Part shown: piece after piece, positions 25,397-64,000 of the stretch | How positions within the stretch are numbered: the stretch's first letter is position 1 | Layout of the letters: each line of letters opens with the position of its first letter | DNA from: Psammoneis japonica | Taxonomy: Eukaryota | NCBI GenBank assembly: GCA_008632985.1 | Contig: QPGO01000039.1 | Span: forward strand, 434,001-498,000 | Length of the DNA: 64,000 nt | Reading direction: 5' to 3' | Notes under the pieces: generated by a model | What the model was told of the DNA's origin: nothing | What the model saw: the letters and a program-made list of their open reading frames with translations, nothing else | Databases searched by the model: none | Translations under genes and position numbers: made by a program

Positions 25397-25968
25397 TGTA
25401 ATCCAACTTTTTGACTGGGATTCAATTGAATGCATGTCCTACTTTGCCCGTTGCTCCCTCGGTCGCTTCACTGTGCTCGCAAAACTCGCAATCGCAAAAT
25501 TGCCCTCTCGCAAAGGTCAAAGCGCGCGGCGGCACAACGCGCGACGCTGAGGCTTTTGCACCGTTGAAGTCTGAAATTGAACCCAAGTTGCGTATGGAAG
25601 GGAGGTCTGACTCTTGGGCCTCTAGTCACCAGCAAGCTCTTTGAGTGCCTGCCTTGTCGCAGCCTTTTTATAAAGGTACCATAGCGTGAATTTGTCATTT
25701 GGTTTCGTTTGTGGGAAAGGAGAGGGACAACAACAATTGATGAGCACATACCAAGTAAGATCAGACCCAGCGCTAGCTAGAGTAGGGGCTACTTCTTTGC
25801 AAAACGTGGAGGTAGGCCTATACTCTACCGTAGTTGCTCTAGGGTTCGAAGTAATGATAAGGACAGACTAGACTACATTTACACGTCAAGCTAAACGAGA
25901 CCTTGCGCGCACCCAATTTACAGCAACCCTCTCACAAAAGAGAGAGTCACACTTCTTGACAAGGAAGC

Positions 25969-29100: not shown

Positions 29101-29368
29101 AGCGACGCCATGAATTGACAAATCATGACATTTCGTTCTGGGCAAATTACAAAAGGAATGCGTTGACCATAAAACAAGTTGTCGTAGTTACAGAGTGTTG
29201 GGCGAGTTCTAGGCAAATTACGAAAGAACACGTTGGGCTTGACAAATTAGCACAGTTTCAGGGTATTGGGCAAGCATTCATTGCGTCAAGCTGGACTGAC
29301 AAACACATTGGTTACCACACAGACTCGGCCCGGGCTACAATCCACAAATGAGAACTGTGGAAAAGCTG

Positions 29369-39273: not shown

Positions 39274-40239
39274 TCCACATCATGGCAATCTATCAAAAGC
39301 AAGAAAAATTCAACCTCGTTCGGTCCGTCATCCGTCCGTATAAACTACTAAACAGCACACGCGCTCATCACCGCAACGATAAAATTGTTGAAAAACCCGG
39401 AGATTGGCCATCCCGTCGTCCGCCCTCCGCCCGGTCATGGTTCTGGACTCCTTTTTATCATTGACACTCGACCATGGTGCCGCTCCGCTGTAAACGGCTC
39501 GCTTTTCATGCTCTTGCTTGATTGTTCACTTTCGGCAATGTAGACTGGTTGCTGGTCATGGGAAAGCGTTTCTTCAGCGCCATGGCAAGCCGCTGCCGGG
39601 AGCCGACGATTGATGAACGACGAATGCCAACATGCTCTGGATTCGCCACAGCATGCTGTCCCGCCCCTTGCACCCTCTGTTGGAGCATAAGTACTTCGAG
39701 TCCCATTGAAAATAGAAAGGACGACGCTCTAAGACACATTCGATCACATTCTACGGATGGGCAGCAGGCTATTTATCCTGTCGGACCACAACGATAAGGA
39801 GACAGATCGACAAACGGACAAGCAATCATAATTTGCGAACTCCAACAAATCCGCGATTGCACATCAGTATCATTTCTACGGTCAATGCATATATTTGAAA
39901 TCATGTCCAGTGATGCTCAAGACTCCCATTCAGGCTGCAAGGGTTTTTGATCCAGTAGGCTTGTATGATCATTCTACTACTCAATCTGTTAAATGTTAGA
40001 GGGTAGACGTCGAAATTGCGAAGCCTGGTTGCCGTGTAGAAACTACTTCTATGTTGATCGCAGTATTGTGAAACAGTCAAGCACAAAACAACAAACCTCT
40101 TCTTGTGTAAGTAGTAACAAATAACGCTGAACTGCAATCGACTTAGATACATGCATTCATCTCCATTGCTTTATCTCTATGAATTTCTGTTTTCCAGGTA
40201 AAAGCGCAAAGCGATCAAGTCAACAAAGAAAACTGAATA

Positions 40240-41629
40240 ATGAAGACCATCATCTTTGCTGTGGCCGTGGCTAGTCTTATCTCTTGCCATGGCGTACATG
40301 CATACTATCCCGAGGGATTTGAGACAGTCACTTGCGAGTACGAAGAGTCTCTCGAGAAGTTAATTGAGGCCGCCGAGGACATCCCAAATTATGTTGATCC
40401 ATGGAACGTCCAAATGTCCTGGAACATGATTTACAATGCGAGAGACGCAAAAACGGAGATCGAGGCTGGAGACGCACTTGCGTCACTTGAGGAGCTCCAA
40501 GCAGTGACCTCATGGGCCCGAAGGATTATCGAAAGAGAGAATTGTCAGACGCGTTACTGTTTGAAAAACCTACATGACATTAGTCAACAGGCTAGTGACG
40601 CGGCCATTGAATTGCTTGAAAGGATGCTCGTGGATATGGCCTATATTATAGGCCCAACCTCTCGTGTCTTCGGCCTGGATGAAGAAGCTCGAAGCCACCG
40701 AGACGGGAGGAGATGGTTTGAATCTGTGTGGACTGTTCAGCGAGGCGTCAGCCTCATACTTCAGCTTATCGGGGAAACTGAATTACCTGTTTGCGATGAT
40801 TATGATGGGATCCCTACGAGCGCTCACTATCCTAACGGCTTCTGCTATGGCACCCCCTTTACTCTGAATGGCAACACGGCAGATTATCCTCGCTACCTGG
40901 GTTTTCAGGATCAGTGCGCCATGCGCTTGACTCCCGACGAACGGGGATATCGTGCTTCATCAGCCTTCATGCGGATGAGAATGAAAGAGGGATTTTCCTT
41001 CTCTGCGCAGTTGGGGTATCGCATTTTTGGTGATCGTCATGGCCAAGGCGATGGAATGACATTCACAATGCACCAGGATCCTCGCGGCGTAAAAGCGCTT
41101 GGGTTGACAGGCGGTGCGCTGGGTGTGTATTCCGAATCATCGCAGTCGTCTCACATTCCCCCGATTTCGCCGTCGCTTGTCGTCGAGATGGACACACGTG
41201 AGTACAGTGTTGATTCGGTCGTTTCCCTTTAAATTGAAAATGAACGTCCAATCCGAACGATACTGACTCATTTCGAATTGCTTTTTGATCCAGAAAATAA
41301 TCCTGGGTATGGCGACAGGGGCGAATACCAAATTCATGTCCTACTCGTCCACACAGGAGGTCATCGCGAGCATCTTGCCCAGGAAAGGCTTACTTCCATA
41401 CAGGACAGGAATCACAGGATCTCTTCTAGTCTTGTATGATGGAGAAAGTTCGACCCTCAGGGTGCGTCACACATCAGATGACTATTTTCTCAGACGTCCA
41501 GTCATCACGACCCATGTAAACTTAGCCAGCTTCTTCACGGGTCGCCAAGTTTTCGTCGGTGTCACTGCAGGCTCGTGGAACTTTGCTGTTGACAATCAAG
41601 ACCTCACGTCTTTTACCTTCTCCCAGTAA
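40240..41629 (+). CDS. Secreted protein with N-terminal helical region and L-type (legume-like) lectin domain; intron ~41198-41293
   Basis: Signal peptide; GDGMTFTMHQDPRG..ALG..GGALG, LVVEMDT, VFVGVTAGS; GTGAGT...CAG intron; apparent frameshift near 41395. Confidence 0.8.
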
Positions 41630-41710
41630 ATGGGTTCACACCATTCATGTCCCCGTGTTCTAATTTCCCAGCCACGGGGATTCATGACACGTTACGTCGT
41701 GATGCGACCA

Positions 41711-42225
41711 TCTACATCCAAGAGATCTATACATCCCTGGAAACGGGGATTCATGAGACTTCGTTTACATTCTTGTACCTTGGAATCTTTCTGTCAGTTT
41801 AAGGATTCATCAAGGTTTACATATTCGGCTCCTTCGCTTCTACATCCAAGAAATCTATATCTCTCTGGAAACGGGGATTCATGAGACTTCGTTTACATTC
41901 TTGTACCTTGGAATCTTTCTGTCAGTTTAAGGATTCATCAAGGTTTACATATTCGGCTCCTTCGCTTCTACATCCAAGAAATCTATATCTCTCTGGAAAC
42001 GGGGATTCATGAGACTTCATTTACATTCTTGTACCTTGGAATCTTTCTGTCAGTTTAAGGATTCATCAAGGTTTACATATTCGGCTCCTTCGCTTCTACA
42101 TCCAAGAAATCTATATCTCTCTGGAAACGGGGATTCATGAGACTTCATTTGCATTCTTGTACCTTGGAATCTTTCTGTCAGTTTAAGGATTCATCAAGGT
42201 TTACACATTCGGCTCTTTCGCTTCT
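41711..42225. repeat. Tandem array, 4 x 128 bp
   Basis: ggaaacggggattcatgag recurs at 41739, 41867, 41995 and 42123. Confidence 0.95.
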
Positions 42226-42349
42226 CCTCTTAGGAACAAATAAATATGATGTTGCGTCTTCGCTTCTGTCTGTTCCAGGTCCTTGGTTTGGACGATATGT
42301 TTGACAGTAGGTTAAAGACGCAAATCAAGTTACACAATGCTTTTCACAA

Positions 42350-42460
42350 CTACCTGCTACTCTCTAGCAGCTACTTACGCTAACTCCTCTACTCTAGAGT
42401 AGAGTAGCTACTGCTAGAGTAGAGCAGCTACTGCTACCACTCTACTCTAGAGTAGTAGTA
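42350..42460. repeat. CTA/TAG-rich low-complexity quasi-palindromic tract
   Basis: ctctactctagagtagag and tactctagagta palindromes, agtagtagtag. Confidence 0.8.
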
Positions 42461-43463
42461 GGGCCACAGCACAGTACGTTGAGAGCGGAGTGCAGCAACA
42501 CAACTGCTCTATCACTCTTTCTCCACTACCAAGAGAGAGAGAGTGCTAACAGCGCTTTTTCGCGAGCGAAAACACCAATGACAGGGGCACTCCACTAGAA
42601 GCCCGCAATGGGCCGGCAGACAAAGCGACAATTCAGCCATCTCAAAACTGAAAAATGGCACTAAACGAACAGAGAATCGGCAGCAAATTTTAAATGCAGC
42701 GTGCATTTGATCTGTTTCTCCCTCTGTCCTTTGTCCAGTGCAGAGGGAGTCAACATTTGACAACCATGATGCTGGTTGCCTGGCAGCAGTTGTTTGCTTG
42801 TCTTTTGTGTTTTCAGCAAGAGAGCAGTTGATTTGCTTGCAACATCACTTGTTCCATGACCCACACTCTCTGCCAGACTGGACAAGCTGCAGTCTCTCTG
42901 GTGGGAACCTGCTCTCTCCATTTTCTGGAGTTGGACATGGCAACTTGCCGGAACAGAAACTCCAGCACTCCGGAGATGGCTCTCTTGCTGTGCCAGGCAG
43001 CCGGGTTGCCCGCCTGTGCCCAGGTGCACACACACACGCACCCTCCCGTGCAAGCCTGCCTGCAATTGCCAGCAATCAGTGCCTGCTCTCCTTGTCATTT
43101 TTTGTTCCTTGCATGTCAAGATGACATGATGATTGAGCATCTCTCCCAGAGATCAAGGTCCAGAGTTGTTGCTGGTGACAGATGGGCAGCCCACACCACA
43201 CAGGCACACCATCAACAAATTCTTGGTTTGCAACACAGCACATGGAAAACTGGAAAATGTTTGAAAACACAGGAGAAGAACTGGAAAGCCCCACAACCAG
43301 GCTTTGATTGCAGCTGCTGCATGATTTGTGCATCTCATGGCTGGCTGGAGGAGACACGGTGTGCCACCCATCACTTGCTTTTGACAGCACCAGGAGATCC
43401 TGGCAGGTGCCCAGTGCAAGACATCCAATGCAAGAAAATGTGTGCCATCTTCAAAAGGTGTGG

Positions 43464-44640
43464 TGCAACACACAGCTGCCAACAAGAGTTGGTGCATCAC
43501 GGCGACGTGTTGCAGCCTTTAAATGTCACAAAGGGCGTGACAAAAACAACCTTTTGTCTGCATGCATGCTGCGCTGTGAATTCAAAGCGGAGTGGTTCAT
43601 CTCGCAACCATCAGGCAGGAGGCCAGGGGTTCGAAACCCTGAGTGGGAGTTGTCTGCAGCAACGTTGATCACTGTCGAACGCGCAAAACTCTGTGCAGTT
43701 CTGTGTGTTCCTTCGCACGCACCCACACTGTTCCGCCAAAACCGTGCAGCGTCAGTGCACGTCAGCAAAGAGCCGCATGGACGCGTGACACATGGGGAGG
43801 AGTGCAACACACAGCCACTGACAAGAGTTGGTGTGTCACGGCGACGTGTTGCAGCCTTTAAATGTCACAAAGGGTGTGACAAAAATGACCTTTTGTCTGC
43901 ATGCACACTGCGTTGTGAATTCACAGCGGAGTGGTTCATCTCGCAACCATCAGGCAGGAGGCCAGGGGTTCGAAACCCTGAGTGGGAGTTGTCTGCAGCA
44001 ACGTTGATCACTGTCGAACGCGCAAAACTCTGTGCAGNNNNNNNNNNNNNNNNNNNNNNNNNNNNNNNNNNNNNNNNNATCCTTGCCAACACTGAAGAAG
44101 TTGCAGCAGCTGAGCCAAGCATCTTGCTCTGCACCCAGCAACCTGAAGAAGCCTCTGCCTCCCAGGGAGCAGGGACCAAACAAGAAGGCATCTCTTTTTG
44201 TGCTGCAAATGCAACCCCACTGCAGTGTGCATGCAGACAAAAGGTCATTTTTGTCACGCCCTTTGTGACATTTAAAGGCTGCAACACGTCGCCGTGATGC
44301 ATTGACTCTCATTGGTGGCTGTGTGTTGCACTCCTCCCCATGCATCACGCGTCCATGCGGCTCTTTGCTGACGTGTGCTGACAGCGCAACACACAGCTGC
44401 TGATGAGAGTTGGCGCATCACGGCGACGTGTTGCAGCCTTTAAATGTCACAAAGGGCGTGACAAAAATGACCTTTTGTCTGCATGCACACTGCAGTGGGG
44501 TTGCATTTGCAGCACAAAAAGAGATGCCTTCTTGTTTGGTCCCTGCTCCCTGGGAGGCAGAGGCTTCTTCAGGTTGCTGGGTGCAGAGCAAGATGCTTGG
44601 CTCAGCTGCTGCAACTTCTTCAGTGTTGGCAAGGATTGGG
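43464..44640. repeat. Direct (~339-bp period) and inverted repeats surrounding assembly gap 44038-44078
   Basis: tcacggcgacgtgttgcagcctttaaatgtcacaaaggg at ~43497, ~43836 and ~44418, and inverted at ~44260-44297; 44079-44330 is the reverse complement of ~44390-44635. Confidence 0.85.
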
Positions 44641-46250
44641 CTGGTGACACAATCTCTTGGTTGTTGCAGTCACTTCTTTAGCTCAACTGCAGGCAGGCAC
44701 TGGCACCAGTTTCTCAAAGAACACCAGTGCTCTCCACAGCCTTGTTCTGAGTCTTGTTGGCTTGCTTCTCTCTGTGACATTCTGTGCTGCATTGGTGCCA
44801 TGTTGAAACTTGACTCCTGTCTCCTCAACCACACAGAGCAGAGGTCTGTGACACATGCTGCCTTTTTGCATGGGAAGTGTGGCCAGCACTGGTGTGTTGT
44901 TGCTGGTTTGCAACAACAAGTCCTCAGTTGATGCAGTGCATCACATTGACCCCCTTCTGCTGGCTGGAGAGCCTCCACCCTCAAAGCAGGACAGAGAATC
45001 AGACTTTTTGTCAGCGCCACTTCACTTGACAAATGCTCTGTCATCACCAGACTGGGATCTCATTGATGAAATTTGTGGTGCGCTGAAAGATGTCAAGCTT
45101 CACAAAATTGCAGTGGCCTCCAACTTGTGCGTGCTGCTTGAGTGGATGAAGGGTCACCCCAGGAGATTGTCAAACCCCATTTCAAGCCCCTCCACTGAAA
45201 GCACATGTCAGTGTTGGAGCAGACAAGATTGCTGGCAATCCTCAAGGCATGCACTCCTTTCACCCAATCAAGCTCACACTTTCCAAAACTTTCTCATTGC
45301 TCTTGGCATTCTCACCGCAGCCAAGCACATCTGATGTGTGGCCATGGCTCCTCCTTTTGGTGGCGGGCATGAGAGAAAAGCACTCTCACAAGCAGGCTGC
45401 ACTTGTGGCCAAATCAACCTGAGCCAAGGCATGGCACACTGCTCTCATAAACTTGCACATCCAGAAAAACAAGTGTCAACTGTGAAGCTCATGATCCACA
45501 ACCTTCTTCTTGCCAACAATGCAACCAACAGAAGGTTCCAACACACCAGCCAGTTGAGGAAGGAAGTGCAGCTTCCCAGCCCATGACAGGAGAAGATGCC
45601 ACAGCCAGGTTCAAGCCATGCAACTTTGCATGACCGTGAAGCTGGCAAAAAACTTCTTCATGGACAACAGCTCAGTTCTTTCAGTGTCTCTGTGTTGTGC
45701 ATGAGTGGTGTTTGCAACACACTGAGCAGAACAGTTTTGCTGCCAATGCTTGAGTGCAGCCACCTGCGGAGGAGCAACATTTCCTGGTGCTGGTTGCTGC
45801 AGGTGCTGTCTCATTGTGCAAGCAAAGAAGAAAACATGTTGGGTGAGACTCACAGTGGATGTGCTTGGTCCAAGCAACTTTGAGTTCGCAGCTTCCCAAC
45901 ACAGTGAATGTGTTTTCTGCAGAGAAAAGTGGGGTGTCCTCATCCTGGTGTGGCTGTTCAATCTTTGATGAGTTTTTTGAGAGTGTTGACAAGGTTGTGA
46001 GGTCAAGGTGAGCCAAGTTCTTCAACCAGCAAAGGGTGGGACAAGCACTTGAAACATGGCTTCACTGCTGCTGCAGCGGTGTGTGCATGTTTGACAAGAA
46101 GAGTTTGATCACCTTCCTCCATGCTGTTGTTTGACACAGCATTGTGGGATGGTGTGGGCACCCCACCAGTTGAGTCACTTTTGATGACTCCAGAGGGGGG
46201 ATCCACTCCACTTTGGTCTTGAGGAAGAAAAGCTTGCTGAAGAAAGCCAT
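44640..46250 (+). mobile_element. Relic 3' part of an RNase H-containing non-LTR retrotransposon
   Basis: Ordered RNase H-like motifs: CSESCWLASL (RxE), VCNNKSSVD (CDN with CG->CA), PDWDLIDEI, WMKGH, AHVSVGADKIAG; then VKLMIHNLL. Confidence 0.6.
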
Positions 46251-47210
46251 CAACTCACATCAGTTGAGTCACTTTTGATGACTCCAGAGGGGATCTACTC
46301 AGCTCTGGTGGGTGACTGAGCTCTGAGAAGTGGAGCAGCACATGACAGAGAAACACACCAAATGACACTCACAAAGTCTGCAGCACAATTTTTCTCATTT
46401 CCACAAAATGTTGCAAGGTCAGATTGCTTGATGGAAACAAAAGATGGACTTTCTTCCACCCAAGAACCTGTTTAGAGTGCAGCTGCTGGTCTAAACTGCC
46501 TGGAACGACAAGGGGGCAAGAGCCCACCCTGTTGCAAGCACAAACTGTGAGCAGGGAAAGGCCACACCAGCTAAAACCAAATTGGCTGTGTGTGCACCAG
46601 TGGAGAGATGTGCTTGCTGCACTGAAGCCTTCAGCTCAACAACATGAGTCACTGTTTTTGTTTTTTCTCTTTGCTTTGCTGCCATGGACATCTTCTGCTT
46701 GGTGCTGGCCCATCAAATCATGACACACCATGTGCCATTTGCTTGCAGACAGCTCTCCAGCTCAGTGACTTTCATGCCTTGCGTTGCATGACCCAATTGT
46801 TCTCTGAGTCTCAAACATTTGAGACTGGGACAGAGGACCAACTCATCAATTCTGATGGTGACTTTGGTGTGGTTGCATCATTTTGCCTGCAGCAGTCAGC
46901 TGGCATTTGCTCTCCACAACAGCACACATGGGCCAGGCGCAGCTCTGATGGTGGCAGTGCTGCTGCAGCTCCTTCTCCAATGGCAACTTGAGCATGCTCC
47001 CCACATGAGCTGCAGCCACGCCACTCATCAAAGTGCAAGTCTTTTGCTCACATGCACTTTTGAGCCATTGTTGTTGGGGATCAAGAAAAAACACTTTTTT
47101 CTTGCAAAAATGGTGCATGTGCCACCAACCAGCATCATGTCTGAGAGCAGAGCAATGCAGTGTGGCAGGGCACTCCACCACTCCACCCCAACACTTGAAA
47201 CTGAAGATCT

Positions 47211-47582
47211 TGCACCATGCTTGAAGAACAAGCATGAATGAAAGCAAAACGAATCACGAAAAGTGAAAATTGTGAGATTAGATTTTGTTCTAAGATTTGG
47301 GTTTTTCCAAAGGAGGTCTTGATGGCCTGAAGCAAGCTTTTGTGCTGCTTCCACTGACCAGGGGCCTCATGGAGAATTAGATTGTGACAAGAGATTGTCC
47401 AGATGCAAGCAACATTGATGTGTCATCATCATCATCCAACTGCACTTGCAATGTTGACATCCTGTCACATCTGTGTGATTGATCTGTCCTTTGCACGCAT
47501 CCACGATTGTGGCATGATGGACATGTGCAATGACACAATTGCAAATGTGTGTGTTTCCTGCTGATTGACAATGCATGCTGCA
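47211..47582 (-). repeat. 3' LTR
   Basis: tgcaccatgcttgaagaacaag...atgcatgctgca; matches 51187-51565. Confidence 0.9.
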
Positions 47583-50500
47583 CTCACCTCCCTGGTTGCA
47601 CATTGGAGTCATTTGCCAAATGGTGTGATTTGACAGATGTTGACAGTGTCAACAACGTCTCCGCGTTTGATCTGCACCTTGCCACCAGTGTGTGCCATTG
47701 ACATTTTGCAGGGTCCAGCACAGGACTGTTCTAATTTTTGAGAGTCATTCTTGAGCAATGTCTTTTCTCCTGCCCTGTGGGGGCAAGGAGTGTGTTGAGC
47801 ATTTTCTTGGGCATCATTTCTGTTTGTGATGCTTTGTTTTCATTTCTGAACAAATTTCCAGTCAGCAACGTGTGTTGGACATTGAACATCATGACTTGAT
47901 CAAAGACTGGTTGTTCTGGTGCAGCTTGCACAGCAGTGTGACAAGTGGGAGCATTTTGCAGTCAAATGTGCACAGCATGTTGCCCAGCACTTGATGTGTG
48001 CTCTCAATGATTGCAGCGGCTTGTGGATTTCATGCAGTTGTGGGCGCTTGCACTCAATGCCATGGTCATCTTGGACCACATTTTTAAATTGATGTCCAAT
48101 GAACTTGCTTCCACAATCACAAGCAATTGACAATGGCCAAGGACATCTGCTTGACCACGTTCATTCCAAGAGTCCAGCAACAGTTGTGGATTCCTCATTT
48201 GGAATTCCCCCACAACTTCAAACAAACACTGGTTGCTGGATCTGTTGTTGTCAAAAGGGTTTCTTTTTCCCTTTGCAATGCATCTTGTGTGCAGTCCAAT
48301 GAGATCCACGTGCAGTCTTTCCCATGGCACTGCTTCTGTGCACTTGGGGGGCAAATGTCGACATTTTTTTTCTTTTTGAATTTCTGGCACGTCTCACATT
48401 TCAACATGCATTTTTGCATGTCTTCTCATGTGGGGCAGACCACCACAAGTGTTGCAAGATTGTCTCTTCTGTTTGATTTCCATGCCAGGGTGCAGAAGGT
48501 GTGCATGACACCAGTCCATCACCACATTTTGCAATGTCTTTGGCACAACAATTTTTTCCTTGTGACACATGAGCAATCAATCTTCTTCACCTCCACAAAA
48601 AGTCTTCATGTGATGTGTTGCATCAAACAATTTCAAGAGAATGTCTTTGTGCCATTTTTGTTCAGTGTCAAGAACTTTGCATGTTGACTGAAAGACATTG
48701 TTGCAGGATTCAGGAGCTGCCTTTGCTGTCAATTTTCAGAGCTGAGGTTTTCACAGGGTTCTGTTTGTTTCACAGCAAGTTGGCTGATTGCATCTGTGAT
48801 GATGTTGGCCTTGCCCTTGAGGCAAATCATTTCAGGACTGCATTTTTCTGTTGTCAGATGCCAGTGCATGACTCTGTCCACAAATTTCCACAGGGAGTCT
48901 GCAGTGCTCACATTTGCCCTGTGGCATCACCATCATGTGCAACCAACGTGCATGTGGTGTTGGCTTGATGTGATGATGTCCCACACTCAAATCAAGTGAC
49001 GTTGCACACATGAAGCCCTTGAGCTTCTGTGGCATGTCTTGAATGTTGGGTGGGGGGGGCATGGAGTGCACATTGACCTCTGACTCAGCTCACAAAAGTG
49101 GGACAGAAATCAAACTCTGCCATTTTTCTTGGATTGAACAAAAGTTGGAGCTGCCCACTCTGAGTGCTCCATTTTCCTTGAGACTCCTGGCATGCAGAGT
49201 CTTTTGACTTCCTTTCAAGCGGTTGCCTCCAAGGCTTGTGGAACCAGAAATGGCTTTGCATGACATGGTGCTGCCCCCATTTCAACACAAGATTGACCAG
49301 TTTTCCAGTCCACATGCCTGAGGAACCATCAAAAAGATTTTCAAATCTTTTTTGGAGAATGTCTGTTGCTTCTGTTCCTCTGGAGTGAGGTGAGTTGCTG
49401 CTGCAGTCACATTGTTGAGGTTGGCAGCATGATGGTCAGCATCAAGGATCCTGTTGACCCTGGCATTGAGATTTTTCATGGCATGAGATTCCTCAATGTG
49501 ATTGGCAATCAGCTTGAAGACCTCTGCATCAATGAACGCACCCCCACATCCTTCATTGGTGCAGTTGCATCTTCCAATTTAATTTCTGTGTGTTTGTGAA
49601 ATTGAGTGTGATCCCAAGACTGCTCATCAAGTTGCTTCTTGTGATCACATCATGTCGGCTTGAAGAAGAAGGAGTGCTGTCCACACACACAGTCTTCTCA
49701 ATCATTTTGTGCGCATCCAATTCAGGCATTGAGAACTGTGTTTTGCATTTGCTGTCAGCTGCAAAGAGCCCTCCCTTGGTTTGCCAAGTGTTGGTGGCGG
49801 ATTCTTTAGTTCTCAATTCCCTCATGAATTTGTTCAAAAGTCAACCATGTCTGATGATGTTCCATTGTCAAGAAGAACATGCAGAGGCTCATTTTTCTCC
49901 TTCCCCAAGGAAGCATTCATGTGAGCGATGGCTGACGGACTGGCATGAGTTGTTTTTGCCTTTTTCCAGGCTTTCTGGTGTCTAGTGGTGCATGTGACTT
50001 GTCAACAGACCCCAGTCATTTCTTGGATTCACTGCGTGTCATCCAGTCAAATTGGTGGTTTTCTTCACTGAGGGTGTCAGCATCAGATTCTTCACCATTG
50101 CGGTTTTTGTCACCCTTCAATGAACTTGCTTTGAGAGTTTTGTTGGCTGCTTGAGCAACTGTCACATTCAATCATTCCTTGTGAGAGACATTTCCATTGT
50201 TGCAATGCAACCACGTGCAATTGCCATTCTGATCTTGCTGTTTTGGGTTCTGCTCAGAATTCTCATGGTGTTCCTCAGCCACTCTTTTAATGACTCAGCA
50301 TTTGTCTGCATTGTGGGTGGTCTTTTTGCAGCAGTTGCACCACTTGTCAGACTCAGGATGTTTGGTGCCAGATGGGCGACCATTTTTGGGACCACTTTGA
50401 GATCTGCCTTTGGTTCTGGAATCAGGCTTGCTGTTGGCATTGCCCTTGACATGAACAGCATCAAAGATGTCCCCTCTGCAACCTCCAGACATTCCAAAAA

Positions 50501-51186
50501 ACTCAACCAACTTGTCAAAGGCATGGTCAAAATTTCAAAACCTTGTGTGGTTGACTGACAATGCCATTTGCAAGGTCCAAGGTTGCAGTCAATGTCCTTG
50601 CTTGAGCTCATGATCTTCCTCAAGCTGTTGGTCGTTTTTGAAGGGAGGACAGAACTTGAAGTCCTCTTTGACCTCCTGAGTCCATGCAGCAATTTCTTGA
50701 ACCTTTGTCAACTCTGGTTTCTTGAGATCACAACACAGACACTGTTTCTGGTTCTGAAGTGCATTCTTTGGGAAGACATGAGTTGAGAGATGATGCAGGC
50801 ACTTTTTGAAGGCTTTTTTGGCTTCTTTGTTCAAAGAGCATCTCCATGCAACAACACATGCATGAGTCAAAATTCATTGGCTTGCTTCCAAATGTTCTGC
50901 CCCACCAGGACTTGGCCACACGTCTTGAGGAATTTGGTGCACTTGGGGACTCCTTGTTTGTTGCAGCACTTGACATTGACTGTGTGTGGGCATGACTCTT
51001 TTTGTCCTCTGGGCAAAAACACTGTTCCATCTTGAGAAGCTGACTCAGTTTGAGCATCTTTGGCTTGGAGATCAACTTCAATGGCATTGAAGCAATTTTC
51101 TCCTGCTTGATGGAAGACTTGCCAGCTGCAACATGAGGTGAAAGTTTCAATTTCATGTTTTTACCTTCTGTGGTGTGCATGCACAA

Positions 51187-51565
51187 TGCACCATGCTTGA
51201 AGAACAAGTGCAAATGAAAGCAGAATGAATCACAAAAGTGAAAATTGTGAGATTAGATTTTGTTCTAAGATTTGGGTTTCTACAAAGAAGCTCTCTCAAT
51301 GGCCCAAAGCTTTCACACTGCTTCCACAGACCAAATGCCTTGCAGAGAATTAGATCATGATGACAGATTGTCTGGATGCAATCAACATTGACATCTTGTG
51401 TGTCATCATCATTGTCCAATCACACTTGCAACATTTGACATCCAATCACATCTGTGTGATTGATCTGCCCTTCATGCGCATCCACAATTGTGGTGTGATT
51501 GACACACACAACAATGTGCAATTGTGAATGTGCTCATTTCCTGCAGCTTGTCAATGCATGCTGCA
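51187..51565 (-). repeat. 5' LTR
   Basis: Same termini and internal gtgaaaattgtgagattagattttgttctaagatttggg as the other LTR. Confidence 0.9.
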
Positions 51566-52664
51566 ATCTGGATGATTGGAAAGTCGTGCTGGGATCAATC
51601 AGCAATGGTGGCCTCTCCTTGGTCCTGTTGCACTTTGAAGCCATGCTCTCTGTGAGAAAATGGCACCCCCACCTGGCCCCACACACTTTGCACCACCAGC
51701 AGCACTTGCCCATTTCCTGAAACACAAACCTGCTCAGAGGCTCAATCACAGGTGGATGGCAGGAGAGTGTTGCGTGGGTCAAGTTTTAGAGTCATTCTTG
51801 TCCCAATGGGCATGGAGCTGCAAGTTGATGTGTTGTGAAACTCATCATGTGGCACATGTGAGTTTTGCAGTTGTTTTCCAAACCAGGCCTGTGGGAAGCA
51901 TTGGCCACTTGTCTTTCTTTGTGGGTGAGCCACCGTTGCATGCTGCATTGCCTGTGTGTGCGTGTGCCCCCCTGCCACCAAGGCTGGCATTGCAGTGGCA
52001 GGGTGGTGGGGGCACAACACTGGTGACATGGATGACCATTGTGTTTGATGGCTCGTGCCATTTTTGGGGCTGCAGGGAGGTGCACAGACACTCTTTTTTG
52101 TCCAATTTGCCACCAAAATGGCACATTGCACACACTCACTTGTCACTTGACATGTTTTTTCCAATGCAACTGTTTTGTGTGCAACTCATGACAAATTCTC
52201 TTTGTGCAAAGCCCAGTGCATTTTTCAACATGCCATGCCACCAATCCCAATTTCACAGCACTTTCAAGCTCTTCTAAAAAACTTCTCCATGCACCCATCA
52301 CAGGGAATTTGGTCAATTTTTTGGCAAGTCTCCACAACGTCCAATGTCCTCAATGATCATTCTCTGAATCTGAGCAATTTGTTTGCACCAAACAACATGT
52401 GCTGTTCCAAAATCCAAGGGACACACTTTCAAATGGCAGCTGAGGACACCCCAACCAGCTGCCCGACTGCATGACCAACTGCATGACCCCCACCCCAAAG
52501 GATGTGAAAAAGTCTGCAATCACCAACCACTGAGTGGTCAATTGAGAATCAGTGTTTTTCATTGCAGTGCCCTGATGACAGCAAGATGGAACCCAACACT
52601 TGGTGTGTGCGTGAACGCACTGCAGGCATCAACACAAAATTCTGCACACAACAATGACTCTCTG

Positions 52665-55475
52665 AGCTTGATCATGGTCAGTGCTGCTGCTCAGCTCTCA
52701 ATGACAGCTTGCTTCTCATGCTCTTGCTTGGTGGCTCACTTTTGGCACTGTGGGCTGATTGTTGCTGGACAGGAAAGTGCTCAGGCAGTGCAGTGCCAAC
52801 CCCCACCAGGCTCCAACCACTGGTGAACAATGAATGCCAAGATGCTCATGATGTGACTTGACATGCCGCAGCATGCTGTTCCCTTGCAGATCCCCTTGCC
52901 ACCCTCTGTTGGAGCACAAGCACCACAACTCCTGTTGAAAACAGAAACAACAACACATCAAAATGCACTCCATCATGTCCTGTGGACTGAAAACCAAGCA
53001 ACTTCTCAACTTCTCCTGAAGCTGACAATTGATGACAGATTGACAAACTGACAAGCATTGTTGTGTAATTTGCAAACTCCTGCAAATGGTGCATGTGATT
53101 GCACATCAGAATCATGTCTGCAGTCAGTGCATTTTTGAAATCATGCTTGGTGACACTCAAGATTCTCATTCAGGGTGCAAGGGTTTTTGATCCAGTGGAC
53201 TTGTGTGATCATTCCACTGCTCAATCTGTCAAATGTCAGAGGGCAGATGTCAACATTGCAAAGCATTGTTGCCATTGTAGAAAGTGTGTTGACAGCAGCA
53301 TTGTGAAAGAGTCTCACAAAAAGCAGTCAAGCACAAAACAACAAGGCTCTTCTTGCACAAGCAGCAGCAATCATCGCTGAACTGCAGTTGACTTAGAAAC
53401 ATGCATTCATCACTTTGTCTCTGTGCATTTCTGTTTTCAAGGCAAAAGCACAAGCAATTGAGTCAACAAAGAAAACTGAATGATGATTGCCACCATCTTT
53501 GCTGTGGTTGTGGCAAGTCTTCTGTCTTGCCATGGTGTGCTGGCTTTCTTCCCCAATGGATTTGAGATGGTCACTTGTGAGTGCATTGATTCTCTTGAGA
53601 AGCTAATTGATGCTGAACTGCAATTAACTTAGACACATGCATTCATCTCCATTGCTTTGTCTCTGTGCATTTTGTCATCCAGGTAAAAGCACAAAGCAAT
53701 TGAGTCAACAAAGAAAACCAAATGACAAAGAGCATCACCTTTGCTGTGGTTGTGGCCAGCATTTTCTCTTGCCATGGCACACAGGCACACTTTCCCAAGG
53801 GATTTGAGTTTGTCACTTGCAAACACAAAGAGTCTCTCAAGAAGTCAATTGAGGCCGCCAATGGTTTCCCAAACTGCAATGATCCGTGGAACGTCCAAAA
53901 CTCCTGGCACATGATTTGCAATGCAAGAGATGCAAAAATGGAGATCAAGGCTGGAGATGCACTTGCATCACTTGAGAAGCTCAAAGAAGTGATCTTGTGG
54001 GCCAGAAGGATTGTCAACAGAGAAAATTGTCCAACAGATGACTGTGCAAGAGCCCAGCATGCTGTTGACATCAGCCAACAGGCCAGCGACATGGCCTTTG
54101 AATTGTTTGCATCATTTGACTTGTTCAAATCATTTTGCTTGCATTTGGACAAAGACATGCACTGGCTTGTAGACCAGAAGCTTCAACATGTGTTGCACAA
54201 CCAAAGGTCAGGAAATGGTGTGAACCTGTGCAGGCACTCCTGGACGTTGTCAGCATCTTGCTTGAATCCATGGGAGAAAGCACTGTCCCCCCTTGCATTG
54301 AAGTCACTGATGTGGACCATCCTAATGGATTCTGTGATGGCAATCCATTTGCTCTGAATGGCAACAACTTGGCAGATTGTCCTTGCCAACTGGGTTGTCA
54401 AGATCAATGTGGCACATGCTTGACTCCCAACATTCCCAGCATTTGTGCTTCATCAGCCTTCATGTTGATGAAAATGAACAAGAAGTGTTCCTTTCACACA
54501 GAGGCAGGGCATTGCACACATGGTCAAAATCAAGAAGGCAATGGCAATGGAATGACATTCACAATGCACCAGGATCCTTGTGGCACAAACACACTTGTGT
54601 TTTCTGGCAGTGCTCTGGGTGTGCATTCCTCAGCATGCTGCACCAACCACAAGATGTGTCAGCTGTTGCAACAGTGCTTTTTGTCAAAATGGACGGGTGT
54701 GAGTGAAGCACAAACTTGGTTGTTTCCTTTTTTGTTGAACACAGGAAATGCATTCCAGCCAAAACTGATGCATTTTGAATTGCTTTTGCTGCAGATTGCA
54801 ATCCAGAGTGTGGTGACAGTGGCGGATGCTGAATTCATGTGCAACTTGTGGATGAAGATGGTTGTCACCAAGAACTGGCCCAGGAATGGGCTCCCATTGG
54901 TACAGGGGAGCATTGCATGGGACATGTTTGGGTCATCTGTGATGGAGAAAGTTGGGCTCTCAAGGTGCATCATGTGACAGATTCACACGTTGCTCCCACA
55001 CATCCAGTTGTCAGCATGACCTGCACAGACTTGGCCAGCTTCTTTGTGGGCAACCAGGTTTTTGTTGGTGCCACTGAAAGCATGTGGACCCATGCTGACT
55101 GTCAAGACCTCAAGATGTCTCTTGCTTTCTCCCAGCAAATGGGATCACCTGTGGTGCATTCATGCCCCGGTCTTCTCTTTCCCAGCCATGGGGATTCATG
55201 ACATGTTTCATCATTCTGCAACCACCATCCACATTCAAGAATCTAAATCTCCCTGGAAGCGGGGATTCATGATGTGCAGTGTGTCATCTGCATTTGGGTG
55301 CCTTGGAATTCTTTCTTCAAAGTCAAGGATTCATCAAGGTCTGCATGTTTGGATCCTTCACTTCTCTTCCTAAGAACAAACAAATGTGACGTTGCATCTT
55401 CACTTCTGTCCATTTTAGTTCCATGATTTGGACAACATGCATGTGACGGTCAAAGTTGCACAATGCACTTCACAT
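52665..55475 (+). pseudogene. Hypermutated copy of the lectin locus (39465-42350) including upstream, intron and downstream DNA; 5' part duplicated (~53378-53614)
   Basis: Colinear homology, e.g. MTKSITFAVVVASIFSCHG vs MKTIIFAVAVASLISCHG and GNGMTFTMHQDPCG vs GDGMTFTMHQDPRG; frameshifted; stop TAA->CAA. Confidence 0.93.
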
Positions 55476-55499
55476 TGTTGGCACCTGCTCTGGAGGTGG

Positions 55500-58400
55500 C
55501 CACTCTAGCTGGGTGCTCTCTTGGTGTTAGAAATCACAAGTGTGTGGCTGTTTTGCTTGGCAGATGACTCAATGAAGGGGCACTCAATGGGCACAGCCAA
55601 AGTGACAATTGTGCCATCTCTGCAAAGAAAAATGGGCACAAAACAAACATGGAAATGGCAGTGTTTCTCCATTCTTGTTGTTTGTTCTGGTGCACCAGAG
55701 GGGGGCTTCAACATTGACAATCAATGACAATGATGATTCCTGATTCATGTGGTGCTCTTCATCCTCGTCCCAGACTCACTTCCCTGGCAACAATGCCGCT
55801 GATGGGTTGCTTGCTGCAGCAGGAGGACAGAGAGCATGCAGGCAGACATTTCCATCTGCAGTTGGGTGGGATGAATCAACAACTGAATGCCCACATCAGA
55901 CGTGCTTGAGTTGAGCAGCAAATGAGGGCAGCAGCCATGTTTGGAGTTGATCTGCACAAGACACTGCTTCTTGTGTGCCTTCAACAACTCTGGTTTGTTG
56001 CTGCTGCAACCTTCTGATCTCTCTTTTGCTGACCCACTTCTGGAGCCAACATGATTGGCATCATGTGTTGCTTGCTCTTCTGACTTGGCCTGATCAGTGA
56101 TGTGCTTTGACATCAACTGCAAGCAGCCCACATCCCTCAGAAAGCCTCAATGCCATTGCAAAAGAGGCTCCCCATGCTGCCTTCCTGTCACCACCTTGTG
56201 CAGCACACACATCATGAACAAGGCTGTTTTTGTAATTTTGCTGAAGAAGCTCCCCTCTGCCTGTGGACACTCTTCTGTGCCACTGCTGATGAACACTCCA
56301 GCAATGATGTGTTGTTGGCTGGAGTCAATGACCATGCACCCCGCTGTTCTCAGACCAGCTTGATGTCTGATTTTGTTCTGCCACTGCTTGTCAGTCAATT
56401 GTGCCTGGCAAAGGCAGCACAAGACTGCCAAGGGATGATGGTCAGAGACATCTTAGATGCTGCATCTCTGCATGTCTCCATCTGAGATCTGCTCATGTTG
56501 TTCTTGCTGTCCCTGGCTTGCAGAGTGCAGTTCTGGGTTGATTGTTGGCAGGGGCTGTTGCTGCCATGTGTGACAGGTTTTGGCCTCACTCCAGACCTCT
56601 CACACATGTTGTTGAGAGCAGGTCTTGCTGACACCCTCTGACAACATGCCATTGATTGCCACACTGACTCATCATTGTTTTGTGGTGAGCTGCACAAGCC
56701 CACATTTTTGTTTTGATCAGCAGACTTTTTTTGTTGAGTCTTGACTTTTTTTGGGATGCACAGATCAGCAGCACTGGCACCTTCTGCAAGTTGCAAGAGC
56801 AAAAGTTGAGTGCGCCTCTGCCATGACAGGGCACAAGCCTTTTGCAGTTGTTTCTAACACCCTCAGAGAGACTTTGAAAATGTTTGTCAGAACAACTCCC
56901 ATGTGCCTGAAGCCACAACATCCCTGAGCGACACCTGCAGTGACTTGGTTTGTGGACTGGTTGGAGCAATCTTCAAGAGAGCACTTTTCTCAAAAGGCAC
57001 AAGCACTCCAATGGATGGCAGCTCATCTTAACTTTCAAGACAGATGCATGGTCACAAGATCAAGGTGGACCTCAAGCCTTGCCAAACAAAAGCACTCATT
57101 TCCAATTGGTGCATCATGCATCCACTTTGCTCCTGGCATGACACACACACCAACTTGGCCAAGATCTCCAGCAACCCTCAGCATTCTCATCCAGGGTGCA
57201 AGCCTTGTGTGATCATTCCACTGTTTTGTCAACTTGCACTGGCAATGTGGAGCAGTGTGCAAAGCCGTTGATGGAAAAACAAGTGCATGTTGTCTCTCAT
57301 GCCAAAAAGCCAGTGGCACTGGTCTGGGTTGTGTGGCTGCAGCCACATTGCCTGTCATGAGGTGCTTTCCAGAAGGACAAGAGAGCACATCTTCTGGAGC
57401 TGAGGAGTGTGTGCTCTCTTTTTTGAACAGCATGCAAAGCCTTGTCAAGCTCACCACAAGAGAAAACCAAGGAAGGTTGCTGAGGAGAGAGCAACGATGT
57501 GTCTCATGAGAAACCTGGAGACTGGCTGTGTTCCGCATCTGTGCTGCATTTTTTAGATCACTTGTTTGTCATTGTTTTCATTGGGGAGCCTCCATCTGAT
57601 GCTGAAACATTGCAATCTGCCAGTTGTTGCTGCCATGAACCGCAAAGTGCTGCTGGCAAAAGATGCCACAGCCATGGCAACAATGCACTGGGCATGCAAC
57701 AGAGACCCTTGGGCCTTCTGGCTTCACATCAACCATCACACTGGGGTGGGTGATGTTGAGTCTTAAGAAGCCTGGAAGGCTTTGGATGAGAGGAAGCTTG
57801 CAATGCCAAAAAAGAAACAGCTTCTCCAAATGGTGCTTGAAAATCAAGCAGCAACCACACCGGATCTCCACACTGACTTTGGGTTGACAGCTTTTGAAGC
57901 TAGCCTGCAAGCTGCTCAATTCAAAGAAAGTGCAAAAAGGGAGTGGCCAACCTCTCTGTGAGTGGAGGAAAACCTCAGCAGACAAACATGCAGTGAGGGC
58001 AGACACAAAGAACTGTTTGTTGGAAGCAAAACAGGTGGGCCTTTCAGCAGACTTTTTGAAAGTTTCATTGTTGCTTGTTGCAAAATTCCTCCAAGATGAC
58101 ATTGGCAGGATGACGCATGCATTTGCCCATGTCCTGAAACCACCAGCTCTGTGAAATGAATCATTTGGCTTTGACTGCAGAAAATGGAAAAGTGTGAGGC
58201 AAGTGAAGCTCATTGTTGGCATCTTGATGAAGCACCAAACCCAAAATTTTGGCACTGGCTCTGTTGCATCTGGCACAAGAAATTTGCTGCTTGCTGTGGC
58301 ACTTTCCTTCAGTCTCTTCACTCCCATCTTGTTCAAGTTGCCTGGAGCTCTGGTGGCATCAGCATGAGCTCATTGTGATGCTGCTCTGTTTCACACTGAT

Positions 58401-58990
58401 GTTTGATCACAAGTGCTCATCTGAACAGCAAATTTGTTTCACGGTGCTCAGCACTGGTGTGGCCACTGTTTTGCACCAGGAGAGTTGCCCTCTCTGACAA
58501 AGCACAGGAGATAAGGAGGGCACTCCTGCTCAGTTGCTTGTGAAGAGGCTGGTTGTGCCATGCTTCAGTGGGTGTAAACCTCTTGTGCTTCCAAAGCACA
58601 AAAACAACAGGGAGTGTGCCACTGGAGAAAAACAACTGAATGTGGAAAAAAGGAGCATGGAAGGAAACTGCAAGAAGGATGACAGGCCTGCTGGCACACT
58701 CTCAACAGCATGGGGTCAGAAATTGCAGCTGTGGCAGTGATCAGCTGAAGCTGCCATTGGAACAAAAGACCTTCCCAAGTGTTTTGGATTGCCTGAAATC
58801 TTTGTTTCCAGCAAGAAATTGTTGCAAATGAATCATTCTCAAGTTCAAGTGCAGAGCCCTCAGCATTCTCACAGCTCCCAGTTGAACCATGTTGATGTGC
58901 AGCTTTTGCCACACAGGGGACACATTCTCAATTTTCTGCACTTTGCCACTCACCACTCTGTGCTCCATCTGACTGCTAATGGCTGGCAAT
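55500..58990. mobile_element. Unclassified decayed element; possible tyrosine-recombinase fragment near 56100-56180 on the minus strand
   Basis: Minus frame reads ASFAMALRLSEGCGLLAVDVK, resembling YR box I (LRxxE...L...DV); nothing else recognised. Confidence 0.3.
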
Positions 58991-62356: not shown

Positions 62357-62568
62357 GGTGAAAGGTGAAAGGCGTTTGTTATGTGGTTCGTACCGGGGAA
62401 AAAAAAATGAGTTGCATGATGGCATGTTCGTGTGTCGTGCGTGCGCAAGGGTTCGATCGGGATCAACCATGATGGTGCGGTTGTTGCTGCGGGTTGGAAA
62501 GTAAACTGAAAACAGAGAAGACCCACACGAGGAGTCATCCAGAGTCGATGTGCTCATTGACATCTTGG

Positions 62569-64000
62569 TCAGTCGGTGGCGAGGATAATCTGAAGGACAC
62601 CTTTCTTAAAACTCCAGTGGGGCAGAACCATCGAACAGGCAACAGTTGCAGTCATTTGAACACTGCACTGCTCTGCATGAAACGGGGCGTTTGCATGTGC
62701 TGCCCGTCCATCAGGTTGACAAATCCCAAATTCGGTGGCACAGCATCCTGCACCTGCAAGCTCGTTGGGATAAACGTCGAACCTCCACTCGTGAATGTCG
62801 TTGATCCTCATTTTCCCGCCCACCACACACTCATGTCCTTCATCATTGTGCCCGTCTCGCCAAACTTCAAAATTCACACCAACTCGGGCTCCTGTCCACT
62901 TTCCGATAGAGTGTCTGATGTGAATCCACCATCACAGCCTTTGAATGATTCAATCTCAAGTCCCTGGCCTGTCAATGGTGCCCGTTTCAGAGCCAATTTG
63001 GGAGGGCAGAAAAAGTCTTCACATCTGTGCCTGGTGATCTGTGAATCCGCAAAGGCGCACCCAATGGCCTGATGGCTTTCATTTCCAGGAAAGGACAGTC
63101 CACTGGGCATGCATCGCCTGCTCCATTGCCATCAGTGTCAGCCTGATCAGCATTGCGAATAAACGAGCAGTTGTCAATGTAATCGGGAACACCATCACCA
63201 TCAGTGTCACCATTGGAGTCTGCCTGCAAATCCAACATCAACCAACTCATCGAATTGAAACACCCATGCTCTCTAAAAAGCAGCTTTCCATCAAAGAATG
63301 GGTGTTGAGTCGCGAGTCCATCTTCGTTCACTGTGTTGCCGACACTCGCATCCTTCGTCGCCATTCCAGTGGCACCTTTCACCGGATCGTGCACCCACAC
63401 ACTGGATTGGAATCCGGCAGCACCAGCAAACCCAACAAAATGGTTGAAGATCAACTTTCCATCAGAGGCAGACAGACAGCAAATTCGTGAATGCTTGCCA
63501 TTGTTGCCGACATTCTTAATCATCTCAAGAGTGTCTTTGATGGGATCGCACACGAAAAGTGATCTTCCGCATGTTTTGTCTTGAGCGATGAAATGCAGCT
63601 TGCCATTCAACAGTGCAAGCCCTTCTGACCATGGCGGCACAGGGAATGGTTTGTAGCTGGCCAATGCCCGAGTTGAGCCGCTAGTTGGATCGTGCATCCA
63701 GAGGTCACGGAATCGCGAGTGGGTGCTGTTGCTGGATTTGAAGTGCAGCTTTCCATCGAGTGAAGTCATTGACCTCACAAATGCCAAATTTTGCTTCACC
63801 AACGTTGTTCTGGTTTTGTCCAAGTTGTGCGCAAAGACCTCTTCAGATCCACAAGCACCATCTTTGAAATGCAAGGTTCTGTCTGCTGGTGTTAAACTTT
63901 CAAAGCCAGTCTCCGTCTTTTTTGACCGAAACACCTTTTTGATTCTGACGGGTTCCAGCCCCAGGTGGGACTCCGTGTGACATTGGGCCCGTAGAATTCT
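62569..64000 (-). pseudogene. TpA-mutated gene with ELWxxDG-like propeller repeats and thrombospondin type-3 repeats (block 4; 5' end likely outside window)
   Basis: GKLHF...DLWMHDP, GKLHF..SLFVCDP, VWVHDP (Tyr->His/Cys of LYF/WxYDP); DTDGDGVPDYIDNC...NADQADTDGNGAGDAC; frameshift; TA rare, CG retained. Confidence 0.75.

Follow-up and report, generated by a model that had tools for sequence, protein, structure and literature searches.

Loss of TpA and CpG in one copy of a duplicated lectin-like locus and in the tract around it in the diatom Psammoneis japonica

The window analysed here, a 64-kb stretch of the diatom Psammoneis japonica (contig QPGO01000039.1, positions 434,001 to 498,000, numbered below from 1 to 64,000), carries two forward-strand copies of a lectin-like locus, one of normal composition and one in which most TA and CG dinucleotides have been replaced by TG or CA. 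Copy A and its flanks (39466–42345) possess TA and CG at normal density; the gene starts with an ATG at 40240, with exon 1 to 41197 (an open reading frame of 319 codons), an intron at 41198–41293 and exon 2 running to a TAA at 41627–41629. A tandem array of four 128-bp units (41711–42225, 97 % matches) lies downstream of copy A, whilst copy B holds only about one to two such units. Copy B (52666–55480) is a hypermutated pseudogene with frame changes, an in-frame TGA and CAA in place of the stop codon TAA; frameshifts and indels also mark it as a pseudogene. Self-comparison of the purine/pyrimidine-coded sequence gave homology limits of 39493–42341 and 52703–55479 (approximately 2.9 kb), matching the coordinates that a first-pass annotation, made from the letters alone, had assigned to the duplicated locus, and the four pairs of strings quoted in that annotation were all found at the positions given.

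Copy A had been described as intact. Its composition is normal and its exon 1 is open, but in exon 2, over a stretch of 28 nt, two single bases that copy B has are missing (41380–41415; alignment columns 249 and 277). Because of the two missing bases, the frame of copy A ends at 41434, leaving the C-terminal lectin strands out of frame; the two gaps may be an assembly error or real decay. Exon 1 of copy A matched the Pfam profile Lectin_L-type_dom (E 5.6e-8, 33.3 bits, profile positions 8–103 of 215), below the curated cut-off of 78.3, and a second lectin profile with 19.4 bits, below the cut-off of 26.3 (profiles PF18483 and PF00139). The pieces of exon 2 gave no match in the lectin profile search, and a search for near-length homologues with exon 1 of the pair found none at E ≤0.001. 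With the Pfam scores below cut-off and the homologue search empty, the term ‘lectin-like’ is a lead only, and copy B is, to judge from its sequence, probably the dead paralogue of a lectin-like gene.

The two copies were compared over 39466–42345 and 52666–55480 in a transition-tolerant alignment of 60 blocks, of which the 33 with at least 20 columns were used. The resulting 2219 columns comprised 1656 identities, 366 transitions and 197 transversions. Only four of the 122 CG dinucleotides of copy A were still CG in copy B, whereas 96 had become CA (51) or TG (45). Likewise, 60 of the 85 TA dinucleotides had become CA (31) or TG (29) and seven were retained, compared with 100 of 142 AA, 88 of 167 AT and 114 of 183 TT that were unchanged. 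Retention of dinucleotides other than CG and TA ranged from 46 to 78 %, and that of CA and TG was 70–78 %. TA was therefore far more diverged than AA, AT or TT, and the context-specific conversion of TA and CG to TG or CA proposed by the first-pass annotation was borne out by the fates of the dinucleotides.

All four transitions contributed (A>G 79, T>C 89, C>T 93, G>A 105). The transition rate per base was 0.36–0.46 within CG and TA, compared with 0.10–0.12 outside them (0.36–0.37 at TA bases and 0.10–0.11 at the remaining A and T), whilst the transversion rate was flat across base classes at about 0.07–0.13. Since a single hit destroys the dinucleotide, approximately 0.4 transitions per base correspond to 70–80 % of dinucleotides converted. 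Both exons and the flanks on either side showed the excess at CG and TA; the 96-nt intron showed it for CG but contained too few TA to judge. Conversion was thus alike in coding, intron (for CG) and flanking DNA, as had been claimed, and the exclusion of protein-level selection and codon bias holds: the conversion is not a coding effect. The additional paralogue divergence noted in the first pass was present as well, at approximately 10 % transitions and 9 % transversions at non-target bases, which is ordinary for paralogues. The pair does therefore provide a site-by-site record of before and after, although one blurred by this ordinary divergence.

The effect is present at the lectin-like locus but is not specific to it, since copy B lies inside a purged tract of approximately 16 kb (42701–58976; last dense CG at 42700, first dense TA at 58977) in which TA and CG are nearly gone; copy A lies in normal DNA, 360 bp away from the edge of this tract. 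Dinucleotide counts revealed that the window is a mosaic, with approximately half of it in sharply bounded tracts nearly without TA and mostly also nearly without CG. Within the main tract, a subzone free of TA but keeping CG (43481–44639) surrounds an N run at 44038–44078. TA and CG were also nearly absent from a second tract (7378–15016) and from a 1.3-kb island between normal genes (27819–29099) that begins directly after an 11-T run. The tract at 1075–6960, which carries a relic of a Plavaka/KDZ-like transposase, was depleted in TA (observed/expected ratio, o/e, 0.0–0.3) and about half depleted in CG, and a further TA-depleted, CG-retaining tract (62400–64000) continues past the end of the window. 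TA loss extended beyond CG loss next to the second tract, where a border zone of 480 bp (15017–15500) beside the presumed start of an arginyl-tRNA synthetase gene held three TA and a normal number of CG (about 25). No tract that had lost CG but retained TA was found in the window.

In the tracts purged of both dinucleotides (23,644 bp), 71 TA and 127 CG were counted, where a density equal to that of normal DNA would have given approximately 976 and 1282, and o/e was 0.04 for TA, 0.10 for CG, 1.88 for CA and 1.87 for TG. Such a composition, almost without TA and CG and with approximately 1.9-fold TG and CA, arises because one hit on either strand removes the target. The TA-only tracts (9,400 bp) had o/e values of 0.11 for TA and 0.56 for CG, i.e. 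about half of CG was kept, and normal DNA of the window (28,853 bp) had values of 0.57 and 1.01. Tract borders were approximately 20 bp wide. The G+C content of the purged tracts (0.475) was unchanged from that of normal DNA (0.463) because gains and losses cancel. Neighbouring, presumably expressed genes, copy A and the tandem repeat in normal DNA were spared.

Loss of CpG to an o/e of 0.1 is ordinary for methylated repeats, and TA o/e is already 0.57 in the normal DNA of the window, so that old, methylated, neutral DNA in which CpG decay and the universal under-representation of TpA had run to completion might be thought to need no dedicated process. We consider this very unlikely. TA o/e fell to 0.04 with a matching gain of TG and CA, TA sites changed approximately four times faster than others in the same alignment in which transversions were flat, borders were approximately 20 bp wide, TA-free tracts kept about half of their CG, and relatives of the transposase found elsewhere had TA o/e values of 0.34–0.97. 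In addition, Bigelowiella natans shows the same spectrum among its de novo mutations, according to the main text of a preprint (Mettrop et al., bioRxiv 10.64898/2026.01.13.699255, dated 2026-04-14).

Flanking bases influenced both losses. Relative to normal DNA, survival of TA in purged tracts was 0 for ATAT and ATAC, 0.009 for ATAG, 0.013 for GTAC, 0.015 for ATAA, 0.033 for CTAC, 0.083 for CTAG, 0.091 for GTAA, 0.42 for TTAA and 0.49 for CTAA, and that of CG rose from 0.025 for TCGA and 0.039 for CCGA to 0.26 for GCGC. The alignment of copies A and B gave change rates for T of 0.53 in GTA, 0.38 in ATA, 0.29 in CTA and 0.21 in TTA, and for C of 0.57 in TCG, 0.45 in ACG, 0.37 in GCG and 0.15 in CCG. 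On the adenine strand, the order of TA loss was TAC > TAT > TAG > TAA. RTAY (R, purine; Y, pyrimidine) was hit far above YTAR, and TCG above the other NCG, a preference that is the kind of mark an enzyme would leave.

The sequence was compared with a public run (X1; short-read-like contigs, library type not on record, listed for the same sample) that shares 0.81 of sampled 31-mers with the window; two other runs (X2 and X3) covered almost none, and no RNA run with the stretch was listed. X1 depth was 56–90 across the purged DNA at 52.6–59 kb, indicating a single copy, and 62 over normal DNA at 59–60 kb. Pieces of 0.8–3.5 kb differed from the window in 0–18 letters. The portion of the main tract at 46.7–52.6 kb is repeated in the genome, with a summed X1 depth of 200–3000 compared with 60; 811 of 1444 aligned pieces were 90–95 % alike.

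That modified bases were misread or tracts misassembled, true TA and CG appearing as TG and CA, is hardly credible. The window contains an N gap and differs from X1 at some sites where one has CG and the other TG or CA, a kind of difference typical of miscalled methyl-CpG in long-read assemblies. The X1 contigs, however, have the same purged sequence over kilobases at approximately 60-fold depth, and the differences run both ways and include TG/CA doublets (TG in one sequence, CA in the other). Misreading of both strands would give TG/CA conflict at every site and so prevent contigs of 1–3.5 kb; paralogous copies also show fixed, different outcomes, and copy B has frameshifts and indels. The purged sequence is real, with the reservation that X1 is not an independent isolate.

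The direction of change was examined in repeats and in proteins. TG/CA doublets are produced when a single hit falls, independently in each of two copies, on what was once the same TA or CG. Two forward-strand repeat copies in the main tract (47150–47650 and 51130–51630) aligned over 406 columns with 67 transitions and 17 transversions, and 50 of the 67 transitions fell into 25 such doublets (mean of permutation null 2.65, maximum 8, 2000 permutations). This number fits the approximately 19 expected if both copies began with normal TA and CG density, and the number of doublets shows that the repeat copies were mutated after duplication. Three further repeat pairs in the tracts had 13 doublets in 285 columns, eight in 267 and five in 255; paralogues in normal DNA had 19 in 1813 and nine in 1231. 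Copy B itself contains an internal tandem duplication of promoter and first exon (53350–53885, forward strand; B1 approximately 53350–53615, B2 approximately 53590–53885). At 13 informative CG and TA sites of copy A, which served as outgroup, B1 and B2 were concordant in eight and discordant in five, with TG in B1 and CA in B2 at all five.

Proteins gave the same direction. The transposase relic (2651–4549, forward strand) is a 633-codon open frame with 0.0 % Tyr that matched Pfam Plavaka (PF18759) with E 1.5e-6 and 28.1 bits, above the cut-off of 26.3. It had 527 homologues at E ≤0.001, the best with 41 % identity and E 2e-107, and is a genuine Plavaka/KDZ-type transposase relic. Cys was present at all four columns where at least five of nine homologues have Tyr, and Cys or His at eight of the 10 columns where at least three of nine have Tyr, as results when TAY changes to TGY or CAY. 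All 28 environmental relatives compared at the DNA level had TA o/e values of 0.34–0.97, none being TA-free. None of the 15 Tyr codons of copy A exon 1 still encoded Tyr in copy B (five His, three Cys, two Asp, one each of Phe, Gln and Ile, two unaligned), and its 14 CGN Arg codons had become Cys (five), Asp (two), Pro (two), Leu (one) and Gln (one), with one Arg retained and two unaligned. The lectin profile score was 33.3 bits for copy A and 12.5 bits for copy B. Four lines of evidence (repeat doublets, B1/B2, transposase Tyr, and the Tyr codons and lectin score of copy B) thus agree in supporting a direction from TA and CG to TG and CA. The change is mutational and directional, occurred separately on each copy after duplication and is sharply bordered.

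These observations bear on processes outside DNA, namely avoidance of TA and CG by mobile or viral sequences, or ADAR-like editing of RNA that was then reverse-transcribed. A palindromic element at 44.1–44.6 kb is very abundant (summed depth approximately 46,000) yet almost TA-free, the 11-T run adjoining the island at 27.8–29.1 kb could, read from the opposite strand, be a poly(A) tail, and ADAR and ADAT prefer a U 5′ to the adenosine that they edit (Mettrop et al., bioRxiv 10.64898/2026.01.13.699255). Copy B, however, is not a retrocopy, because promoter region and intron are present, and as it is a pseudogene, site-by-site selection on its composition is impossible. TG and CA are balanced, unlike the outcome of one-strand RNA editing, and copies were mutated after duplication. 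Such an origin is accordingly scarcely tenable.

Differences between X1 and the window fit a process that continued after haplotypes or lineages split. Among the 40 of 110 differences that were listed, eight rows formed four TG/CA doublets; the window had TA or CG where X1 had TG or CA at six sites, and the reverse held at nine. Six changes among 105 residual TA and CG, compared with 13 events among 2384 TG and CA, mean that residual targets are approximately ten times more polymorphic, a ratio that may shift since it rests on those 40 differences.

A TpA-specific process has been reported in one other organism. In mutation-accumulation lines of B. natans, two integrated viral regions mutate approximately 1000 times faster than the remaining genome, 230 of 231 mutations being A>G or T>C and all at TpA, and the genome contains TpA-depleted clusters and 324 predicted genes with almost no TpA, enriched for transposon domains; the authors suggest that a DNA adenine deaminase resembling ADAT2 is at work (Mettrop et al., bioRxiv 10.64898/2026.01.13.699255). 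In the window, 31 of 64 one-kb windows pass the cluster thresholds of that preprint, in four or five sharp-bordered runs, so that the TA arm belongs to a known kind of process (2026, one organism). As far as the preprint describes it, the two cases share TpA>TpG/CpA on both strands in regions of tens of kb or less, TpA depletion with CpA and TpG enrichment in clusters, and an association with transposon or foreign sequences and unannotatable genes. They differ in several respects. The present host is a diatom (a stramenopile), whereas B. natans is a rhizarian chlorarachniophyte; depletion is far deeper here (TA o/e 0.04, compared with a Rho of 0.45 for its nucleocytoplasmic large DNA virus region); near-total CpG loss is coupled to it, a host-type gene paralogue is hit and the preference for RTAY over YTAR is visible. 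Conversely, the B. natans data are de novo laboratory mutations, whereas the window offers a footprint and polymorphism only. CpG, diatoms and flanks are unmentioned in the main text of the preprint, whose supplementary mutation list might show flanks.

Among textbook cases, repeat-induced point mutation (RIP) of Neurospora was long, to our knowledge, the only one in which a genome mutates silent DNA of its own; it acts on cytosine only. It makes only C:G>T:A changes, favours CpA, creates TpA and leaves AT-rich DNA, and it is premeiotic and depends on a RID-type DNMT. The pattern in the window resembles RIP and the TpCpG hypermutation of basidiomycetes in being region-restricted, made of transitions only and sharply limited, in killing genes and transposons, and in hitting copies independently; the TCG preference recalls the RIP-like TpCpG pattern described for basidiomycetes (PMC3318451). 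In contrast to RIP, the tracts have lost TpA, A:T>G:C changes make up half of the events, G+C is unchanged, CA and TG are kept at 70–78 %, and, where RIP mutates both duplicates, the partner copy A and the 128-bp array were spared. Classical RIP is at odds with the destruction of TpA, the A:T>G:C events, the unchanged G+C and the spared duplicate.

A different repeat-induced system, in which homology-recognised duplication rather than chromatin position or foreign origin set off both arms, is improbable, though it has points in its favour. Copy B is a duplicate, the genome holds further copies of the DNA at 46.7–52.6 kb, repeat copies acquired their mutations independently once they had duplicated, the sharp borders would suit element-sized targets, and diatoms are reported to carry DNMT4, related to RID and of unknown function (PMC9998398). 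Normal DNA, however, contains copy A, the partner of B, as well as the 97 %-identical 128-bp array and three paralogues of FAST_1/RAP/DUF1601 (FASTK-like) genes (18354–20256, 22689–25438 and 29322–31589, with 111-nt or 37-aa tandem units in up to 11 copies), all of them unmutated, which indicates that duplication as such is not the trigger. Moreover, the DNA at 52.6–59 kb is at single-copy depth, and the B. natans target is described as single-copy (Mettrop et al., bioRxiv 10.64898/2026.01.13.699255).

We favour, with a probability of roughly 70 %, a reading in which copy B lies in a silenced tract of the diatom nuclear genome that underwent tract-restricted transition hypermutation of TpA and CpG, a reading in which the deaminase, the methylation and the trigger are inferred. 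The targets would be the two self-complementary pyrimidine–purine steps, TpA and CpG, each going to TpG or CpA. The TpA arm would correspond in kind to the TpA-only hypermutation that integrated viral DNA undergoes in B. natans. Most likely an enzyme, such as an ADAT2/TadA-like deaminase, would deaminate adenines that follow a T, with an activity that needs T 5′ of A and prefers a pyrimidine 3′. The CpG arm would be deamination of methylated cytosine and would act only where a tract is also CpG-methylated; such a need for methylation is proposed as the cause of the TA-only tracts and of the CG-keeping border beside the promoter. The trigger would be that a sequence lies within, or itself is, silent DNA of transposon-rich or foreign nature, and not the pairing of duplicates.

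Known chemistry offers partial parallels. TadA acts on the sequence UACG in the anticodon loop. Like TadA/ADAT2-3 and ADAR, the TpA arm makes A>G changes with T or U required 5′, and the order TAC > TAT > TAG > TAA resembles UACG; unlike it, TadA/ADAT, ADAR and AID/APOBEC are known as RNA editors or one-strand editors of viral cDNA. The B. natans preprint cites ADAT2 enzymes whose activity extends to C in DNA (Mettrop et al., bioRxiv 10.64898/2026.01.13.699255). We know of no biochemical demonstration of natural adenine deamination that is chromosomal, tract-wide and strand-symmetric. CpG loss in the window appears to fit ordinary deamination of 5-methylcytosine, as known from methylated transposons of vertebrates and plants, with which it shares CpG>TpG/CpA on both strands in silent, repeat-rich DNA, CpG surviving beside the presumed arginyl-tRNA synthetase start; TpA loss, in contrast, falls outside the scope of that decay. 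In diatoms, transposons are reported to be CpG-methylated by DNMT5, and loss of DNMT5a demethylates them (PMC9998398).

Strand orientation was used to compare this chemistry with oxidation. Under deaminase pairing (C>T with A>G on the same strand), 67 runs were found compared with 78.8 expected (P about 0.03), and 27 of 41 CG–TA pairs within 10 bp were co-oriented; under methylpyrimidine-oxidation pairing, 82 runs were found compared with 78.9 expected, without clustering. No long strand-coordinated runs of outcomes were seen, just a weak short-range effect. It is possible that one enzyme acts on both A and C of one strand, the orientation evidence being too thin to decide.

Oxidation of 5-methylpyrimidines, by a TET/JBP-type dioxygenase acting on the T of TpA and the 5-methylcytosine of CpG and leaving oxidised bases that mispair, is unlikely. 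Both formyl-uracil and formyl-cytosine are mutagenic. Both targets are palindromic with a 5-methylpyrimidine on each strand, whereas TG/CA, with one, is immune, and a single enzyme reading symmetric methyl groups would link the two arms; furthermore, the window contains the Plavaka/KDZ-like relic, and fungal DNA transposons are reported to be associated with TET/JBP genes (PMC12730594). Oxidation, however, predicts CG>TG together with TA>CA on one strand, and the weak run data point in the opposite direction. At the five discordant B1/B2 sites, both kinds of target gave TG in B1, and the TA-only tracts show that the arms can be uncoupled.

Several points weigh against the reading of copy B as part of a hypermutated silent tract. 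As noted, deaminase, trigger and the part played by methylation are inferred rather than observed. No outgroup is available for the lectin-like pair, the search for near-length homologues having come back empty, and X1, of the same sample and stored as contigs, provides no independent isolate. A Pfam search of 126 tract open frames of at least 100 aa found only the Plavaka transposase, a weak Tmp39 match and TSP_3, and no viral family; with no viral gene recognised among these frames, the label ‘foreign DNA’ is unproven, and copy B is a host-type paralogue. The TA-only zone reaches to approximately 65 bp before the presumed ATG of the arginyl-tRNA synthetase gene (15565), which is odd for a process aimed strictly at silent DNA. 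No tract shows an imbalance between TG and CA (500-bp windows; standard deviation of z 1.15, compared with 1.29 in normal DNA), and support for the same-strand coupling expected of a deaminase is weak. No C>T excess is described for the B. natans regions (Mettrop et al., bioRxiv 10.64898/2026.01.13.699255), so that an ordinary process with no relation to the TpA arm may underlie CpG loss in the same tracts.

TA loss in diatoms was not reported in the literature searched, where the B. natans preprint was the one TpA report found. What is new in the window is the diatom host, the end state, the flank rules, the coupled CpG purge and a host-type gene copy as victim. Diatoms are a major and ecologically important group, and the gene duplicate gives a site-by-site record of before and after. 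Should the process prove general, A>G editing at the level of DNA would be widespread in the SAR (stramenopile, alveolate and rhizarian) supergroup, as a defence or as a by-product of silencing. It would also account for open frames in algal assemblies that lack Tyr, have few stops and defy annotation, would make Rho_TpA and Rho_CpG together a simple genomic marker of silent or foreign DNA, and would suggest that natural deaminases of adenine in DNA exist that could interest biotechnology. A bolder and doubtful extension, which we would put forward only tentatively, is that diatoms and chlorarachniophytes share one chromatin-guided editor that acts on the A of TpA and the (methyl)C of CpG on the same strand in any DNA of silent tracts, host genes included. 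If true, programmed adenine deamination of chromosomal DNA would be an ancient eukaryotic mechanism of genome immunity and a natural dual base editor of A and C.

Throughout the tracts, purged DNA contained long open frames, overlapping in more than one reading frame and on both strands, with 0 % Tyr and raised Cys and His (for example at 1968–4552 and 11450–12604). The frames are long because TAA and TAG have been erased, leaving TGA as the only surviving stop, and gene callers would take such Tyr-less, stop-poor frames for genes. At 62990–64000 (reverse strand), in the TA-depleted tract cut by the end of the window, a 337-codon frame with 0.6 % Tyr matched the thrombospondin type 3 repeat (TSP_3) with E 1.3e-6. 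In the TA-depleted tract towards the start of the window, G–C and A–T skews were both +0.16 to +0.29 at 5000–7000 and both negative at 2000–3000; since transitions cannot create it, this purine/pyrimidine skew predates the hypermutation.

The genes of normal DNA were arginyl-tRNA synthetase, the three FASTK/RAP-type genes, a GST-like gene and copy A. The best matches of the arginyl-tRNA synthetase were in diatoms (among them Asterionellopsis, Pseudo-nitzschia, Fragilaria, Nitzschia and Thalassiosira) at 56–70 % identity, and no near-identical protein was found in the collection searched. An alveolate origin, which the FAST_1/RAP/DUF1601 proteins had suggested, was rejected on the strength of these diatom matches. 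The 11-T run at 27808–27820 that adjoins the purged island would read on the other strand as a possible poly(A) tail, as after a retroposed insert; the island (27.8–29.1 kb) showed no terminal repeats, whether inverted or direct.

TA-rich interlocking palindromic repeats of the CTAGAGTAG type occupy 42350–42470, in the interval that separates the A/B homology from the main purged tract. Inside the tract, the extremely abundant element (summed X1 depth approximately 46,000, compared with approximately 60) is a near-perfect palindrome beside the N gap (44079–44636, and 43455–44037), almost TA-free but with CG kept. ARAGORN and Rfam made no call in the window, including at a tRNA-like GGTTCGAAACC box (at 43.6 and 43.97 kb) that occurs at approximately 43600–43640 and again at approximately 43940–43980.

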